The position numbers and the translations under genes were made by a program. Below are positions 637 to 10,172 of a stretch of 10,339 nucleotides of DNA, piece by piece. This DNA comes from a virus (taxonomy: Duplodnaviria; Heunggongvirae; Uroviricota; Caudoviricetes), in IMG/VR virus record IMGVR_UViG_2671180710_000010, positions 1 to 10,339 of that record, one strand, 5' to 3'. The notes beneath the pieces are model-generated. The model saw only the letters and a program-made list of their open reading frames with translations. It made no database searches and was not told the DNA's origin. Each line of letters starts with the position of its first letter. Position 1 is the first letter of the stretch.

Positions 637-1398
637 TCACTTTTCCGATACAACACGGCGGGAAGAATCAGTAATCTGTCGAACAATATCCCGGTGCTTG
701 TTCAGCTCCCGCAGCGCGGCGCAGACTCGCTCCCACTTCTGAACATCACTTTTCGCCCTGCGCAGCGCCAGGTTTGCCCTGCGCAGGGACGGAAAAATCA
801 GCTCATCTGCTTGCGTTTCGGTAAACGATGGCAACGACTGCACAATGTCCGCCACAGTTTCTGTTTTAATTTCTTCCTGTGTTGCGGCTTCCCGGACTGG
901 TAACGCAGCACCTGCTGGCTGAGGAAAGGCCTTACCATCACTTTCCGTTACCGATGCTGCTTTCGGCTCTGCTGGTAAATTATCGCCCGGCATGCAGTAA
1001 CGAAATTTACCGTTCTGATTAACGCGAATCAGACGACCTTTACTGATTGCCATTGCCAGCTTTGAAGCCACTTTGCGTGATGTGATGCCGAAAAACGTAG
1101 CCAGTTCATCCGCCGTTTGTGGGCCACGTTGTTCAATCGTCGCAGTTAAATCGCTCTCCGAAATTTTAGCGACTGTTGCCGTGGTGGTTTCTTCCGACAG
1201 TTCTGCCGGCGCTGGCTGTTCCCGCTGAACGTTGTTATAAGCCACACGCCAGGTGTACGCGCTTTTATCAACGAAACCAGCCTTTTTCAGTTCCCATAGT
1301 TCGTTCAGCACTTCTTCACGACTGATATCAAGTCGCGCAGCCAGTTCTACCGACGTGGCTTTTCCCATCGCTTTCAGTGCGTCAAAAACAGTCTCCAT
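637..1398 (-). CDS. Phage protein with two predicted winged-helix segments (DUF1627-like, recalled family)
   Basis: 253-aa ORF. ATG at 1398 has GGAGG 6 nt upstream. Two similar HTH-like segments ([26 protein letters not shown] and [29 protein letters not shown]). Family name is from memory only. Confidence 0.6.
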
Positions 1399-1430
1399 AA
1401 ATTTCCTCCCGGTAAAAATTACTTCTCAAC

Positions 1431-2096
1431 TCAAACAAACCCAGCCGCTTTCCGGCGTTCATATTCCTGTTTCAGCAACTCAATTGGCGTTGGCCCCGAC
1501 GGGCGTTTGGGTGCCGCCAGTTGTCGCCGGACTGGCGGAACGCTCAGGCCGTTACTAACATGCTTTGCCCATTTCGCCAGCTGCCGTTCTGCAAGCCGTT
1601 TTAATTCCCCTTCGGTCATCTGGCGCTCAATCCCCTTTGAACGCATCTCGAGGCAAATGTGATACAGCACAGGCTGAGACCACGGGTACTTATCACTTCC
1701 GTCATATCGCCAGGACTCATTGCGCCAGCGGCGGTACTCCTCCATCACAGCATCCACCGTCAGACCGAATGGATTGGCTCCGCTTTCCGAAATCAGTGCC
1801 ACAAACTCAGCCAGGTCCGGAGGCCATGTTTCACCCGCCCGGCAGCGGTCCATGCACTGGCGGCAGACCTGTCGGATTTGCTGCTCAGTCATCGCGCCAA
1901 TCTGTGCAATCCAGAGCTTCGAAGGTGCGGCCCCGTTCTTCTGGGTCCAGCGGTTCGAATAAACCTCCCCCATGAGTTCCCACAGCTTCCAGACCGTTTC
2001 CGTCGCTGATAAATCCGTTTTCACGTTCCCACTGCTCACGTGCTGCCCGAATTTCCTGAACTGCCCGTGATGCGGTGCCACCTGGTGCTGCTGCAT
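1431..2096 (-). CDS. Replication protein P-like (DnaB helicase loader family)
   Basis: 221-aa ORF. C-terminal region (..EYRRWRNESWRYDGSDKYPWSQPVLYHICLEMRSKG..TEGELKRLAERQL..) aligns by eye with the recalled lambda P C-terminus (..YEYCRKRGLYPDAESYPWKSNAHYWLV..TDAELRRKAADEL..). ATG 2096 has AGGGGG 6 nt upstream but overlaps the O-like gene by 212 nt; alternative starts at 1973 or 1892. Confidence 0.65.
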   Translation of the reverse strand: MQQHQVAPHHGQFRKFGQHVSSGNVKTDLSATETVWKLWELMGEVYSNRWTQKNGAAPSKLWIAQIGAMTEQQIRQVCRQCMDRCRAGETWPPDLAEFVALISESGANPFGLTVDAVMEEYRRWRNESWRYDGSDKYPWSQPVLYHICLEMRSKGIERQMTEGELKRLAERQLAKWAKHVSNGLSVPPVRRQLAAPKRPSGPTPIELLKQEYERRKAAGFV

Positions 2097-2925
2097 GGTT
2101 TACCCCCTTGCTGACTGGTTTAACCTGCGCCCTGACGTGATTTACGTGACGGGCGAATTTCTGCTCCCACTGAATCTGCGTAAACACTTTCCCCTCCGCT
2201 GCCCAGTAGTCCCGGAAGGCGGCAAGTTCAGCAGGTGTAAATTCTGTCTCCGGCAAAGCCATCCCCCACAACGCAGCCCGTCGTCGAAAATCCCGTGACG
2301 GATACCAGCTATCGGTCATCGGAAATTTTCCGATGGGTTCGCTCAGGCCATCCAGGAATACAAGGGGTGCTGCCTGTAACGACAAAACTTCCTGCTCACT
2401 GGTCGGAGCACTCTCGCGTGCGTTATGTGTGGGGTTTAGATCTTTGGGTTCCTTTGGGTTCCGTGATCCGTTTTTGGGTGTCTTTGATGGAAAATTTGGG
2501 TGTCTTTGGTTATTTTCCATGCAGCTAAGAGTTCCGTTTTTGGGTCTGTTTTGTGCTGAAACATAACCATTTTCGGTACTGTTTTTATTAACAGCACCAA
2601 TTTTACCCACCTTTAAAGACTCCCGTTTTTGGGTGTATTCAGGCTCGGCAACACTTTCTTCTACACCGATAAGTCGGTACACCACAATTTGCTTTGTTCT
2701 GCCTTTTCTCTCACCGGTATCAACAATTAACCCAATCTCCATCAGGTGTCGTAAGCTGTCCTGCACAGTCTTTTTGTTCAGTTCCGTTACTTCTGCCAGT
2801 GCAGATACAGACGGGTATGCACACAAATCGGCACCGCACATATCAGCAAGCCAAGTCAATACAGACTTACTGGATGAACTGCCGGTTTTCACCTTTTTAG
2901 CCCATCGTAGTGCATCGATACTCAT
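1885..2925 (-). CDS. Replication initiator (lambda O position): N-terminal HTH domain, central low-complexity linker encoded by the iterons, C-terminal DnaT-like region
   Basis: ORF is open 1885..3000. ATG at 2925 (MSIDALRWAKKVK...) has AGGGG 5 nt upstream and overlaps the upstream gene end by 29 nt. N-terminal HTH (LAEVTELNKKTVQDSLRHLMEIGLI), Pro/Lys/Asn-rich linker, C-terminal FTPAELAAFRDYWAAEGKVFTQIQWEQKFARHV. Position between the CII-position gene and the P-like gene. Confidence 0.65.
   Translation of the reverse strand: MSIDALRWAKKVKTGSSSSKSVLTWLADMCGADLCAYPSVSALAEVTELNKKTVQDSLRHLMEIGLIVDTGERKGRTKQIVVYRLIGVEESVAEPEYTQKRESLKVGKIGAVNKNSTENGYVSAQNRPKNGTLSCMENNQRHPNFPSKTPKNGSRNPKEPKDLNPTHNARESAPTSEQEVLSLQAAPLVFLDGLSEPIGKFPMTDSWYPSRDFRRRAALWGMALPETEFTPAELAAFRDYWAAEGKVFTQIQWEQKFARHVNHVRAQVKPVSKGVNHAAAPGGTASRAVQEIRAAREQWERENGFISDGNGLEAVGTHGGGLFEPLDPEERGRTFEALDCTDWRDD
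2441..2640. repeat. Iteron cluster plus AT-rich tract inside the O-like gene (putative replication origin)
   Basis: Same-orientation copies with a TTTGGGT core: CCGTTTTTGGGTGTCTTTG (2468-2486), AAAATTTGGGTGTCTTTGG (2491-2509), CCGTTTTTGGGTCTGTTTTG (2534-2553), CCGTTTTTGGGTGTATTC (2623-2640), plus tandem CTTTGGGTTCC x2 (2441-2462). AT-rich stretch 2554-2620. Same arrangement as ori-lambda inside gene O. Confidence 0.5.
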
Positions 2926-3448
2926 ACGAACCCCTGGCAGACATTTGTTTATCTGCAAAGTAATATTGATATTGCTGACGATACGCATGCTTGAAAGCAA
3001 TAGCTTTTTCTATAAGCTCGTCAGTCTCACGTTCCACAACAGATGGATCCGCAAAAAGCAGCCCGGACTCCACCACATCGCCATATTCTTTGTTTAACCC
3101 GGCGATCATGTACGTAATGCTTTTTCCGTCAGTAATTTCACAATACAACCTGAAATCGCTGATCCGGATAGCCTCCATAATTGCCGGAATCAGCGCCGTG
3201 AATTTTTCCCGCTTATCCCTGGTGTCGATAGCTTTCCAGCGTTCGAATATCTTCACCCGGTTAACGCCCAGCGCCCGTTGATCAACCTCGCCATCATTAA
3301 ACGTGACGCGTTGAACATCGATGTTCGGGCGTTCTTTCAGAGCCCAGAATGCTTCCGTGATTAATATCGTCGCCTGCTCCTGTGTCATTCCTGGTCGGCA
3401 TACCCAGGCATCCAGAGCCTCACAAACCTGTTCAGGGGTGATTTTCAT
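2897..3448 (-). CDS. YdaT-like regulator in the CII position (183 aa)
   Basis: ATG at 3448 overlaps the end of the cro-like gene by 17 nt. Motif TRDKREKFTALIPAIMEAI resembles the REK..LIPAI segment I recall in Rac YdaT. Position immediately downstream of cro-like and upstream of the replication genes. Confidence 0.45.
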   Translation of the reverse strand: MKITPEQVCEALDAWVCRPGMTQEQATILITEAFWALKERPNIDVQRVTFNDGEVDQRALGVNRVKIFERWKAIDTRDKREKFTALIPAIMEAIRISDFRLYCEITDGKSITYMIAGLNKEYGDVVESGLLFADPSVVERETDELIEKAIAFKHAYRQQYQYYFADKQMSARGSYEYRCTTMG

Positions 3449-3659
3449 TGTTCAACCGCCCCGCCCGCTTCGTCTTACGATATTCGTCATAAACTTTGGG
3501 ATCATACTGAAGCTCACCGCCAGATGCCTCCTGTAGACGCATCGCGCGACCTTCAGGAACCAGTTTCCCCCATGCAGCAACGCTTGCCAGCCTAACTCCT
3601 GCGGCATTGGCAAGCTTTGTTTTGCTGCCAAAAAACGCTATAGCATCAATTTTCAACAT
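3432..3659 (-). CDS. dicC: Cro-like repressor DicC
   Basis: 75 aa (MLKIDAIAFFGSKTKLANAAGVRLASVAAWGKLVPEGRAMRLQEASGGELQYDPKVYDEY...). AAGGAG SD 6 nt upstream of the ATG. Divergent from the dicA-like gene across a 76-bp operator region. Matches recalled DicC/YdaS-Cro family proteins. Confidence 0.8.
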   Translation of the reverse strand: MLKIDAIAFFGSKTKLANAAGVRLASVAAWGKLVPEGRAMRLQEASGGELQYDPKVYDEYRKTKRAGRLNNENHP

Positions 3660-3735
3660 ATCGAACTCCTTAGATTTTCCTAAGGAAACTAGATCGTAGA
3701 GAAACCTAAGTCAAGAAAAATTAGAATTACCTAAT
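3660..3735. promoter_or_regulatory. Divergent promoter/operator region between dicC and dicA
   Basis: Inverted repeat CCTTAG-N6-CTAAGG (3668-3685). AACCTAAG (3703-3710) overlaps a minus-strand -35 TTGACT (rc of 3709-3714). Plus-strand -10 TAGAAT (3722-3727) sits 8 nt before the dicA ATG, which has no SD. Confidence 0.6.
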
Positions 3736-4143
3736 ATGAAAAACGAAACCTTCGGTGCTCGCCTCTTATACAGGCGTAAAAAATTAAAACTGTCTCAGGC
3801 CGCATTAGGTAAGCTGGTCAAAGTGGCTCACGTAACAATTTCTCAATGGGAAAGAGATGAAACACAGCCAGCGGGGAAGAGATTATTCGCACTGAGCCAG
3901 GCGCTTCAGTGCTCGCCGACTTGGCTTCTTTTTGGAGATGAAGATAAGCAACCAGGCGAACCGATCCCAGATAATCAGCCAGTTAATCTGACAGAAGATC
4001 AAAAAGAGTTGCTTCAACTGTTCGACGCACTGCCTGAGTCAGAGCAAAAGGCTCTGTTGTCAGAGATGCGTGCTCGAGTTGAGAATTTCAACAAACTTTT
4101 TGAAGAACTACTCAAAGCTCGCAAAAGAAGCGCAAATAAATAA
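3736..4143 (+). CDS. dicA: Immunity repressor DicA (XRE-family HTH)
   Basis: 135 aa. N-terminal HTH (LSQAALGKLVKVAHVTISQWERDE). Motifs FALSQALQCSPTWLLFGDEDKQP and EMRARVENFNKLFEELLKARKR match my recollection of E. coli K-12 DicA, also 135 aa. Confidence 0.85.
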   Translation: MKNETFGARLLYRRKKLKLSQAALGKLVKVAHVTISQWERDETQPAGKRLFALSQALQCSPTWLLFGDEDKQPGEPIPDNQPVNLTEDQKELLQLFDALPESEQKALLSEMRARVENFNKLFEELLKARKRSANK

Positions 4144-4214
4144 CCCCCCCTTTTTTCGCCACTCTCTGTAATAAAAATCACAAACTTTCAAATGCTTGTG
4201 TTTTTTACATCAAA

Positions 4215-4271
4215 AAACTTAGGTTTTTCTACACAAAAAGCTTGACCACAATTCTTAGGTTATTCTAAATT
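4215..4271 (+). promoter_or_regulatory. Candidate promoter of the downstream ydfA-dicF-dicB operon with overlapping operator-like repeats
   Basis: -35 TTGACC (4242-4247), 18-nt spacer, -10 TAAATT (4266-4271). Two direct CTTAGGTT copies (4218-4225, 4254-4261), the reverse complement of AACCTAAG in the dicC-dicA intergenic region. Confidence 0.4.
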
Positions 4272-4347
4272 CTACTCATCAAGACACCGCACGGTGTTCT
4301 CAGCAAACAGTTCCGCTACCCTGGCGTTAAGGGGAAATGAGGTCAGC

Positions 4348-4803: not shown

Positions 4804-5010
4804 AAAGTGAATTTTGTGATGCGGTGAATGCGGCTAAGCGCACGCGGAACAGTTAAAACCGTAAAGTGGTCTTTTACGGGGCGTAACGGGCATACTTCTG
4901 TATTCCGGCGTTAATTGTTAACTGGTTAACGTCACCTGGAGGCACCAGGCACTGCATCAACAAAGTTCACTTCGGTGATGAAAGGTAAGAGAAAATGTTG
5001 AATGTAGCTA

Positions 5011-5039
5011 TTGAAAACCAGAACGGGTGGAATTATAGT
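5011..5039 (+). promoter_or_regulatory. Near-consensus sigma70 promoter upstream of rha
   Basis: -35 TTGAAA (5011-5016), 17-nt spacer, -10 TATAGT (5034-5039). Predicted start near 5046. Confidence 0.4.
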
Positions 5040-5094
5040 GCACCTGCACCTCATAAAACGGGTGCCGGGATTGCTACCCCGATGTTCATCATGG

Positions 5095-5127
5095 CGCATA
5101 ACCGCGCTCAGGCGGTTTTTTTATGCG
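5095..5127 (+). terminator. Intrinsic terminator-like hairpin with U-tract
   Basis: Stem AACCGC (5100-5105) / GCGGTT (5112-5117), 6-nt loop, T-run 5116-5122. An alternative outer stem CGCATAA (5095-5101) / TTATGCG (5121-5127) is also possible. About 75 nt downstream of the predicted start. Confidence 0.5.
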
Positions 5128-5288
5128 TAATGCACAGCCACATTCAGATTATGGTGGGGCGTGCAGGGCAGCCGCAAGGCTGGCCGGGTTCCATGATGAC
5201 CGGTTGTAGCAACCCTGTGCGTCTCACCACCCATGAGATTGCTACCTCCGGTGGTGAGTTAATGAAATTCATCATGGAGGCTGCCATC

Positions 5289-5846
5289 ATGGCTACTATC
5301 CCTGCCCTTTCTCACCCTGAAATTACTATCGCCAATGGGCGTGCTGTTACATCCTCTTTAGCTGTTGCCGAGTATTTCCGGAAACCACACAAAGATGTAC
5401 TGGCAAAAATTTCACGTCTAGACTGTTCAGCGGAATTCACTGAGCGAAATTTTTCGCCCAGTGAATATACCGACTCAACCGGGCGCAAACTCCCTATGTA
5501 CCAAATCACCAAAAACGGCTTCGTTTTCCTGGTGATGGGCTTCACCGGCAAAAAAGCCGCTGCATTTAAAGAAGCCTACATCGCTGAGTTCGATCGCATG
5601 GAGAAAGAACTGCGCCAGAATAACGCCCCGTCTCCCGACAAAATGATTCACGGGGACGGACGTACCCTGGTTATCCGTCTCGACGAACACGGCAATATCA
5701 AATTCACTGAAACCGTTCCGGACGGCGCAATGGTCTGCACCCTGGATACCTTCCAGTTTTATCTGGAAAAACAAGGCTGGACTCTTGTAAACCGGAGCGC
5801 AATTAAAAATATGACTGTGGAGCAATTACTAAAAATTCATTGTTGA
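5289..5846 (+). CDS. rha: Phage regulatory protein Rha family
   Basis: ATG 5289 has GGAGG 8 nt upstream. N-terminus MATIPALSHPEITIANGRAVTSSLAVAEYFRKPHKDVLAKI fits the Rha N-terminal domain pattern. The listed ORF extends in frame to 4995, but that extension contains the promoter and terminator above and has atypical composition. Confidence 0.75.
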   Translation: MATIPALSHPEITIANGRAVTSSLAVAEYFRKPHKDVLAKISRLDCSAEFTERNFSPSEYTDSTGRKLPMYQITKNGFVFLVMGFTGKKAAAFKEAYIAEFDRMEKELRQNNAPSPDKMIHGDGRTLVIRLDEHGNIKFTETVPDGAMVCTLDTFQFYLEKQGWTLVNRSAIKNMTVEQLLKIHC

Positions 5847-9184: not shown

Positions 9185-10172
9185 TGCACTACCGCCACGT
9201 GTTAGATCGAATGGTTACAGTTACGTATGGAAACCCGAAGGAAGCACAAAAACTATAGGGCTCGGAAGAGTGCGGGAAACCACCATAGCTAAAGTCTGGC
9301 AGAATTATGAACTGGAAAAAGCAAAACGCCACAACATAATGACCGTCGCTAAATTATGGCACATGTTTATGGATTCCCCCGCATTTACAGAACTGGCCCC
9401 CAGAACCCAAAAAGATTATCGGCAACATCAGAGGGCGTTGCTGGCAGTCTTCGGAAAAGTACTGGCTGATAATGTAAAAATTGAGCAGGTAAGAATTTTC
9501 ATGGATAAACGGGGGATTGAGAGCAAGACCCAGGCAAACCATGAACTGGCAAGTCTCAGTCGTGTATACGGGTGGGGATATGAACGTGGATATGTGAAGA
9601 ATAACCCATGCAAAGGAGTCAGGAAATTTACGCTTAAAGCCCGCACTGTTTACATCACAGATGAACAGTATGCGGCGATATATGCGGAAGCAATACCACA
9701 GTTACGCATTGCAATGGAGATATCCTATCTTTGTGCGGCAAGACTCGGTGATGTGCTCGAGCTGAAATGGCAGGATATTATGGATAAAGGGATCTACATT
9801 GAGCAAAACAAGACCGGCACCAAACAAATCAAGGAATGGTCTCCACGATTACGAACCGCGATCCAGTTAGCCAGAAATGTATCTTCAGGCACATGTGAAT
9901 ATGTGATCAACACAACCAAGGGCGGGAAGGTCATAGCTAAAACGCTAAACAACTGGTGGAACCAGGCTAAACACGCAGCCGAGAAAAAATCCGGCGTCCC
10001 GTTTGGGTGCAATTTCCATGACATAAAAGCCAAAGGGATATCAGATTACGAAGGAAGCAGTCGCGACAAACAGATTTTCAGTGGACATAAAACAGAAAAT
10101 CAGGTGTTGATTTATGATCGTAAAACAAAAATCACGCCGACACTGGATTTGCCACTTGTGGTCAGCAAGTAG
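9153..10172 (+). CDS. int: Tyrosine integrase (lambda Int family)
   Basis: 339 aa. N-terminus MGRPRKNKKDNALPPRVRSNGYSYVWKPEGSTKTIGLGR resembles the lambda Int arm-binding N-terminus. C-terminal ..FHDIKAKGISDYEGSSRDKQIFSGHKTENQVLIYDRK aligns with lambda HELRSLSARLYEKQISDKFAQHLLGHKSDTMASQYRDDRG (recalled), including the catalytic Tyr. Lies next to the att core. Confidence 0.9.
   Translation: MGRPRKNKKDNALPPRVRSNGYSYVWKPEGSTKTIGLGRVRETTIAKVWQNYELEKAKRHNIMTVAKLWHMFMDSPAFTELAPRTQKDYRQHQRALLAVFGKVLADNVKIEQVRIFMDKRGIESKTQANHELASLSRVYGWGYERGYVKNNPCKGVRKFTLKARTVYITDEQYAAIYAEAIPQLRIAMEISYLCAARLGDVLELKWQDIMDKGIYIEQNKTGTKQIKEWSPRLRTAIQLARNVSSGTCEYVINTTKGGKVIAKTLNNWWNQAKHAAEKKSGVPFGCNFHDIKAKGISDYEGSSRDKQIFSGHKTENQVLIYDRKTKITPTLDLPLVVSK

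Follow-up and report, generated by a model that had tools for sequence, protein, structure and literature searches.

Iterons that lie inside the initiator gene are a textbook feature of phage lambda, and the question raised here is whether a Rac-like prophage of Escherichia coli keeps its replication origin in the same way, as a set of repeats within the gene for its own initiator. The window that we analysed is a 10,339-nucleotide stretch of a Caudoviricetes record in IMG/VR (IMGVR_UViG_2671180710_000010), in which an earlier note, made from the letters alone, had singled out TTTGGGT-core repeats in an O-like gene as a putative phage origin.

Genomic setting of the initiator gene

The window covers the early region of a Rac-like E. 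coli prophage. A cI-like repressor gene stands on the plus strand (3736–4143), and the minus strand carries a Cro-like gene (3432–3659), a YdaT/CII-like gene (2897–3448), the initiator gene of 346 codons (1885–2925, an ORF for which RefSeq has the same 1041-bp CDS) and a lambda-P-like helicase-loader gene (1431–2096, matching Pfam PF06992 and phrog_109), with DUF1627 and DUF977 genes on the same strand beyond it. Genes for Rha, an exonuclease VIII-like protein and an integrase follow farther along the window on the plus strand. Downstream of the repressor gene, the ORF at 4995–5846 joins an Ash-family N-terminal part to a Rha regulatory domain. When 1300–4300 was scanned for promoters and terminators, nothing rose above shuffle expectation, and the minus strand showed no site resembling pR.

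The initiator gene is 98.9% identical to that of the PPompW prophages of O145:H28 strains, and these PPompW relatives excise and circularise after mitomycin C while being defective in late functions (PMC8112680). At a coverage of at least 80%, the gene is found in 907 of 5,426 complete E. coli genomes, where its alleles are at least 95% identical and the module is nearly invariant; variation among these E. coli alleles is too low for a site-conservation test.

An array of repeats in the linker-coding part of the gene

The word ACCCAAA (reverse complement TTTGGGT) has 10 matches in the 10.3-kb window, against a mean of 2.35 in both-strand shuffles of the whole window. Six cores, at 2443, 2453, 2473, 2495, 2539 and 2628, fall within 2443–2634, and all six are on the minus strand, in the single orientation previously described. 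When any 7-mer was counted per 200 bp, the observed maximum was 6 and belonged to this word, while 4 copies of any 7-mer were never exceeded, either in 500 dinucleotide shuffles of the window or when the synonymous codons of the gene were shuffled 500 times with the protein kept. The repeats are thus real, beyond what either kind of shuffle produces. An exact 11-mer, CCCAAAAACGG, occurs three times (2468–2478, 2534–2544 and 2623–2633), and is absent from the rest of the window and from the rest of the 17 kb of a near-identical prophage. The array takes up codons 96–161 of 346 (nt 292–483 of 1041), which is the linker-coding part of the gene, where the earlier reading had placed it.

All copies are on the minus strand and are given here in gene order. 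The first iteron, TGAATACACCCAAAAACGG (2623–2641), holds an exact CCCAAAAACGG, is read T-Q-K-R, and is identical in the Edwardsiella phage EPP-1. Two degenerate iterons follow, one of them GTGGGTAAAATTGG (2597–2610), which aligns with the EPP-1 iteron ACACCCAAAAACGG, and the other containing ACCGAAAATGG (2567–2585), which belongs to repeat family D1 at 79% and also aligns with an EPP-1 iteron. The next copy has an exact CCCAAAAACGG read P-K-N-G (2534–2552; repeat finder and 11-mer scan), followed by a variant that is ACACCCAAATTTTCC in gene sense and is read H-P-N-F (2490–2508; aligned with EPP-1 ACACCCAATTTTGG), and by a further exact CCCAAAAACGG read P-K-N-G (2468–2486; again from the repeat finder and the 11-mer scan). 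At the end of the array the repeat finder returned a perfect 10-bp tandem of two units, TTTGGGTTCC, or GGAACCCAAA in gene sense (2443–2462). The earlier count of four long and two short copies was therefore recovered, with the long copies at 2623–2641, 2534–2552, 2490–2508 and 2468–2486 and the short ones in the tandem, and the repeat finder gave the same repeat families. The two short copies may not be iterons (see below).

The AT-rich tract that was said to follow the repeats exists at 2553–2620 (35% GC), though it lies within the array, between iteron 1 and the other iterons, and consists in part of decayed iterons, as it holds both degenerate copies (2597–2610 and 2567–2585). It ranks in the lowest 5% of 68-nt windows and contains the GC minimum of the gene, and is a candidate unwinding region, if a weakly AT-rich one. 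No DnaA box lies near the array; the window has one match with a single mismatch, at 9779. The short tandem stands between two GATC (Dam) sites, at 2438–2443 and 2465–2468; the first of them sits within an AGATCT at the module junction (2441–2445, see below), and the same AGATCT is found at the junction in Rac-SA53 and EPP-1.

Domain architecture of the initiator and its P-like partner

The initiator has three parts, namely a predicted winged helix, a linker of low complexity and a C-domain like that of DnaT, plus a tail of about 70 aa. The winged-helix DNA-binding domain (aa 1–95; 2641–2925, minus strand) is assigned from AlphaFold and Foldseek, and is conserved in phages of six genera. Its model has the order helix-helix-helix-helix-strand-strand at medium confidence (AlphaFold pLDDT 75), and the top Foldseek matches, although weak (E ~3e-3, TM ~0.5), are all winged-helix DNA binders of the MarR, ArsR and TubR types. 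Pfam HTH_36 (PF13730) matches at 20.8 bits (E 3e-4), below its curated cut-off of 25, and close homologues carry a precomputed match to the same family. Searching PDB sequences with a profile of the domain returned nothing significant, and a homologue search with the 95-aa domain found 28 proteins, close or truncated, that give a shallow alignment; truncated forms of 130–170 aa that end after the linker are common among database proteins. This domain is the presumed reader of the iterons. The linker (residues 96–170) is rich in N, K, P and S, and residues 201–267 match the C-terminal single-strand-binding domain of the primosomal protein DnaT (Pfam PF17948: E 6.5e-17, 61.5 bits against a cut-off of 25; DnaT C-domain entries 6aep and 4ou6 in the PDB: E ~1e-19 to 1e-18).

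Several replication-initiation or O-like PHROG families were matched, with phrog_1032 at E 1.7e-90, and the N-domain matches the "O-like" PHROG families 678 and 345 over the same part of the profile that is covered by the N-terminal region of lambda O. HHpred results have also linked the N-domain to the lambda O N-domain (PMC5509034). The Pfam lambda O family (Phage_rep_O) gave no match at E up to 0.01, PHROG 277, the best family of lambda O, is absent from the PHROG matches of the initiator, and direct hhalign of the two proteins gave a probability of 10%. From these matches the gene is predicted to encode a replication initiator, and the earlier label of an O-like gene holds in so far as the PHROG families, the DnaT C-domain and the P-like neighbour point to initiation, but not as membership in the Pfam lambda O family; by sequence the protein appears O-like in action and only a remote relative of lambda O.

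The product of the neighbouring P-like gene matches PF06992 (E 1e-16, 61.6 bits against a cut-off of 26) and phrog_109, the P-like helicase loader (E 7e-64). Its ORF overlaps the 3′ end of the initiator gene by 211 nt, that is its last 70 codons, in another frame. Across the overlap (1885–2096), each frame is about 48% identical to its homologue in viral contig L055, and the overlap is also present in contig L130. The ORF starts with an ATG at 2096 that has a strong Shine-Dalgarno sequence, AAGGGGG, ahead of it; PGAP and GenBank give P only 140–153 aa, with a start at the stop codon of the initiator. Both the O-like and the P-like frames are open and have the lengths annotated in hundreds of genomes, so that the replication module, which had been called intact, is intact and conserved at the level of its ORFs.

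The repeats accompany the winged-helix domain across phages

By tblastn, the 95-aa domain has homologues in phages of Edwardsiella, Burkholderia, Acinetobacter, Vibrio, Escherichia and Moraxella, at 37–75% identity. The earlier note had named absence of repeats from homologous initiator genes as one finding that would count against an origin. Arrays were found in all 8 of the phage homologues that were read, at the same place, beginning at about nt 260–350 of the gene and directly after the domain, and a core resembling CCCAAA or CCCGAAAACGG is common to 7 of the 8. The repeat is ACACCCAAAAACGG in Edwardsiella EPP-1 (4–6 copies), ATCCCAAAAACGGGAT in Escherichia phiV10, ATCCCAAAATTGGGAT in Edwardsiella Edno5 and GAACCCAAA(A/T)... 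in Acinetobacter AB1 and LZ35; Vibrio Her has CCCGAAAACGG within 24-bp tandems, and in Burkholderia Bcep176 AACAGTCCCAAA recurs every 22 bp, using all three frames. Moraxella Mcat8, in which the wing sequence diverges from the family, has AAAGGGGGTACAATTTTG repeats, with AAAGGGGGTRCAATTTTG as a distinct unit in 8 copies. When the linkers of the window and EPP-1 were aligned, six EPP-1 iteron positions were matched by position in the window, and the iteron columns were 82% identical, compared with 57% for the spacer columns.

The association was also recovered in the reverse direction, by scanning viral contigs for two exact copies of CCCAAAAACGG placed 5–35 nt apart, which gave at least 120 loci. 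Among the matches listed, 110 of 120 have the pair within an ORF with an upstream match to the winged-helix domain HMM, and in these 110 the first copy lies anywhere from 3 aa before the end of the domain to 55 aa beyond it. The 110 listed loci fall into 37 clusters when the domains are grouped at 80% identity, and into 26 at 60%; the C-terminal parts belong to several unrelated kinds, among them DnaT-like and lambda-O-C-like ones. In 96 non-identical linkers, the median count of a loose version of the motif is 4 per 360 nt versus 0.08 elsewhere in the loci, a roughly 50-fold higher density that is inflated because the loci were chosen for two motif copies, an inflation that does not extend to the domain association. 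The family consensus is ATCCCAAAAACGGGAT, and the 96 linkers give AATGATCCCAAAAACGGGATGTTGA, with the dyad ATCCC-N6-GGGAT.

Some alleles of the gene, of the ydaU type, have a different N-domain. Their DnaT part and P gene are 85–93% identical to the window, and this homology, as with the Rac-SA53-type ydaU, ends at 2441–2445, the edge of the array. Rac-SA53, the one Rac-type phage examined when oriJ of K-12 Rac was weighed as a possible known counterpart, has DUF1376 as the N-domain of its YdaU and no repeats in the ydaU gene. A homology break at the array edge argues that the DNA-binding domain and its sites move as one cassette. Edno5 (contig L008, 1429–2271) is a natural chimera in kind, with the winged helix and iterons of the family fused to a lambda-O-type C-domain and a P gene downstream. 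Joint movement of the DNA-binding domain and its sites was established for lambda O by work on hybrid phages. In phages of many hosts, then, the repeat unit goes together with the winged-helix domain, irrespective of the C-domain behind it.

Reading frames of the repeats

A repeat within a coding sequence could reflect selection on the protein, and a PKNG-like peptide motif in a disordered linker would leave such repeats as a by-product. The composition of the linker, low in complexity and rich in N, K, P and S, agrees with this, as do the many relatives with in-frame 24-bp tandems that code for NDPKNG: sorted by frame, the 405 family sites divide into 326, 56 and 23, the 326 being those in the PKNG frame. 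Yet a repeat within a gene must be an in-frame tandem to survive, and the six cores of the window are spread over all three frames (0, 2, 1, 2, 1 and 2), where the core word is read variously as part of TQKR, PKNG, HPNF and NPKEPK. In the family as a whole, one and the same 11-mer yields PKNG, QKR or PKT, with 40 of the 96 loci using two or three frames, and protein-preserving shuffles of synonymous codons never recreate the DNA repeat. Because the cores occupy all three frames, we consider that the repeat is selected as DNA, and regard the peptide by-product explanation as very improbable. As most sites of the family (326 of 405) fall in the PKNG frame, the linker may in addition have a role as a peptide.

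A second short tandem at the array edge

Relatives of the window carry a second kind of repeat, an 11–12-nt tandem with a GAACC-like core, within 70 nt after the last iteron. Examples are AACCAGTCATAT in three copies in phiV10 and GAACCTATCAA in three copies in viral contig L048, and similar tandems are found at 1810–1850 of contig L007 and 1970–1994 of L006, as well as in L034, L031 and other viral contigs. A tandem score of at least 8 was reached in 68% of 95 loci, as opposed to 2% of control windows, and the tandem is present in 17 of 36 clusters, against 0–2% of control windows. The two copies of GGAACCCAAA in the window stand at exactly this position, and the tandem at 2443–2462 could be either a set of iteron half-sites or the counterpart of the GAACC-type tandems of the relatives. 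In E. coli 7_12_15B (contig L133, about 700–710), one TTTGGGTTCC unit is deleted, which leaves a stand-alone HTH protein and a DnaT-like pseudogene.

One guess at the function of the GAACC-type tandem is that of an unwinding element. A larger and rather speculative proposal is that the winged helix, the CCCAAAAACGG iterons and the GAACC tandem form one portable origin cassette of temperate and lytic phages of Proteobacteria, set on at least three helicase-recruiting C-domains, in which the DnaT-type C-domain would open the origin through a single-stranded DNA filament at the GAACC repeats. We think this proposal doubtful as it stands; if it is true, opening by a DnaT filament would be a melting mechanism undescribed for lambda-type origins.

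A putative replication origin and its alternatives

Our preferred reading, to which we give a probability of about 80%, is that the array at 2443–2641, within the stretch of the initiator gene that codes for the linker, is where the initiator binds in the replication origin of a Rac-like or PPompW-like E. coli prophage. The computational tests able to count against this reading came out in its favour, although of a strongly AT-rich element directly after the last iteron, as in lambda, there is only the 35% GC tract inside the array, which speaks somewhat against it; origin activity as such is what we infer. Under the proposed mechanism, rightward early transcription (Cro, the CII-like YdaT, O-like and P-like genes) would make the initiator, whose winged helix would bind the iterons, probably as dimers on CCC-N6-GG(G) dyads, to form an O-some-like complex. 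The complex would then destabilise nearby DNA, for which the 35% GC tract in the array and the GAACC-type tandem at the downstream edge are candidates. The DnaT-like C-domain may hold single-stranded DNA, contact the P-like protein, or both, and the P-like protein would deliver host DnaB.

A hint that the module may be active comes from NZ_CP148379.1 (pZ1323HEC0067-2), an 8,461-bp E. coli record labelled as a circular plasmid and 96.8% identical to 1181–3573 of the window. Its core genes are cI, cro, ydaT and the O-like and P-like genes, with all iterons intact, and its cargo comprises an AAA_21-type ATPase with an HNH nuclease, a DUF5677 gene, hokD and rem; a search of the whole record for a further replication gene found none. 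The record may be a replicon like lambda-dv or an artefact of assembly. Our literature search found no experiment in which this element, or any member of the winged-helix family, was assayed for binding, unwinding or replication, and no paper that names the CCCAAAAACGG site or tests an origin of this initiator family; a text search for the 11-mer returned only unrelated primer sequences.

There are other possible explanations for the array. The repeats could bind the initiator or another early protein for autoregulation, copy control or superinfection exclusion by titration and not serve as an active origin here. Such inhibition of replication by titration is known for plasmid iterons and for ectopic copies of ori-lambda (PMC4488673, PMC3349717), and the PPompW relatives are defective prophages that have been kept for long (PMC8112680); the module is nearly invariant in the 907 E. 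coli genomes. A titration role is, however, compatible with an origin role, as both coexist in lambda, and the same arrangement is found in lytic Acinetobacter phages, while the O-like and P-like frames of the window are intact; we therefore hold this explanation to be unlikely, if the least unlikely of the alternatives. The array might instead be a slippage- or recombination-prone tract that serves mainly for module exchange or for switching the initiator on and off, and one could cite for this that homology to other ydaU alleles breaks off at the edge of the array, that loss of one unit from the 10-bp tandem splits the gene in some strains, and that many database proteins end after the linker. 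The gene-splitting events look more like the decay of defective prophages, and slippage fails to explain why a specific 11-mer is kept beside a specific DNA-binding domain across genera, so that we give this explanation as little credence as that of the peptide by-product.

Comparison with known replication modules

The likeness to ori-lambda that had been proposed agrees with the annotation of NC_001416 in placement and in the mixing of frames. As in lambda, iterons of one orientation lie in the linker-coding middle of the initiator gene in mixed frames (0, 2, 2 and 1 in lambda), at nt 349–433 of a 900-nt gene there and nt 292–483 of 1041 here. The style of the dyad is also alike (ATCCC-N-GGGAT here, and ATCCCTC-N-GAGGGAT, ATCCCTCAAAACGAGGGA, in lambda), a P-type helicase loader follows downstream, and cro and a CII-like gene precede the module in the early-right operon. 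Unlike lambda, the C-domain here is DnaT-like and not that of lambda O, and the sites are 11–16 bp long rather than 18–19 bp. Four good, two degenerate and two short copies at irregular spacing compare with the four 18-bp iterons of lambda, the AT-rich tract is weak (35% GC) and inside the array whereas that of lambda has 22% GC, and O and P share 211 nt instead of 4 nt.

The initiators of phages of the phiV10/epsilon15 type, Obolenskvirus (AB1, LZ35), EPP-1 and Edno5, and the Vibrio 'Her' type (PHROG 1032, 6643 and 391) have the same winged helix with CCCAAAAACGG-type repeats directly after it. These differ from the window in their C-domains and partners, which are a DnaB-like helicase, a P-like loader or a lambda-O-type C-domain, and most of them have in-frame 24-bp tandems where the copies of the window are scattered across frames. 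For Obolenskvirus, the repeats in the replication gene have independently been suggested as an origin (PMC10888812). In P22 and phage L, iterons lie within gene 18, the initiator gene (PMC8022706); the principle is the same, each initiator type having its own repeats in its own gene, but the phage L repeat, TGTCCAACGGA, differs, and the P22 and phage L initiators were not retrieved as winged-helix homologues at E <1e-3. Iterons within initiator genes are thus known already, from lambda, P22, phage L and, as suggested, Obolenskvirus, and thinking on such origins is unchanged by the present case. The domesticated O/P-like helicase 'matchmaker' pair DopC/DopE (Brezellec et al. 2017) combines an HTH_36-type N-domain and a DnaT C-motif with a P-like partner, and its authors found no iteron-like sequences at dopC loci (PMC5509034); the protein architecture is the same, with iterons and a prophage setting only in the module described here.

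The analysis locates a probable origin for a prophage module carried by about one sixth of complete E. coli genomes, including O157, O145 and O111 strains. In CCCAAAAACGG repeats that follow a winged-helix domain, it also gives a simple signature for annotating origins in a widespread and uncharacterised initiator family, and it presents the module as the phage-borne, iteron-bearing counterpart of the domesticated DopC/DopE pair.
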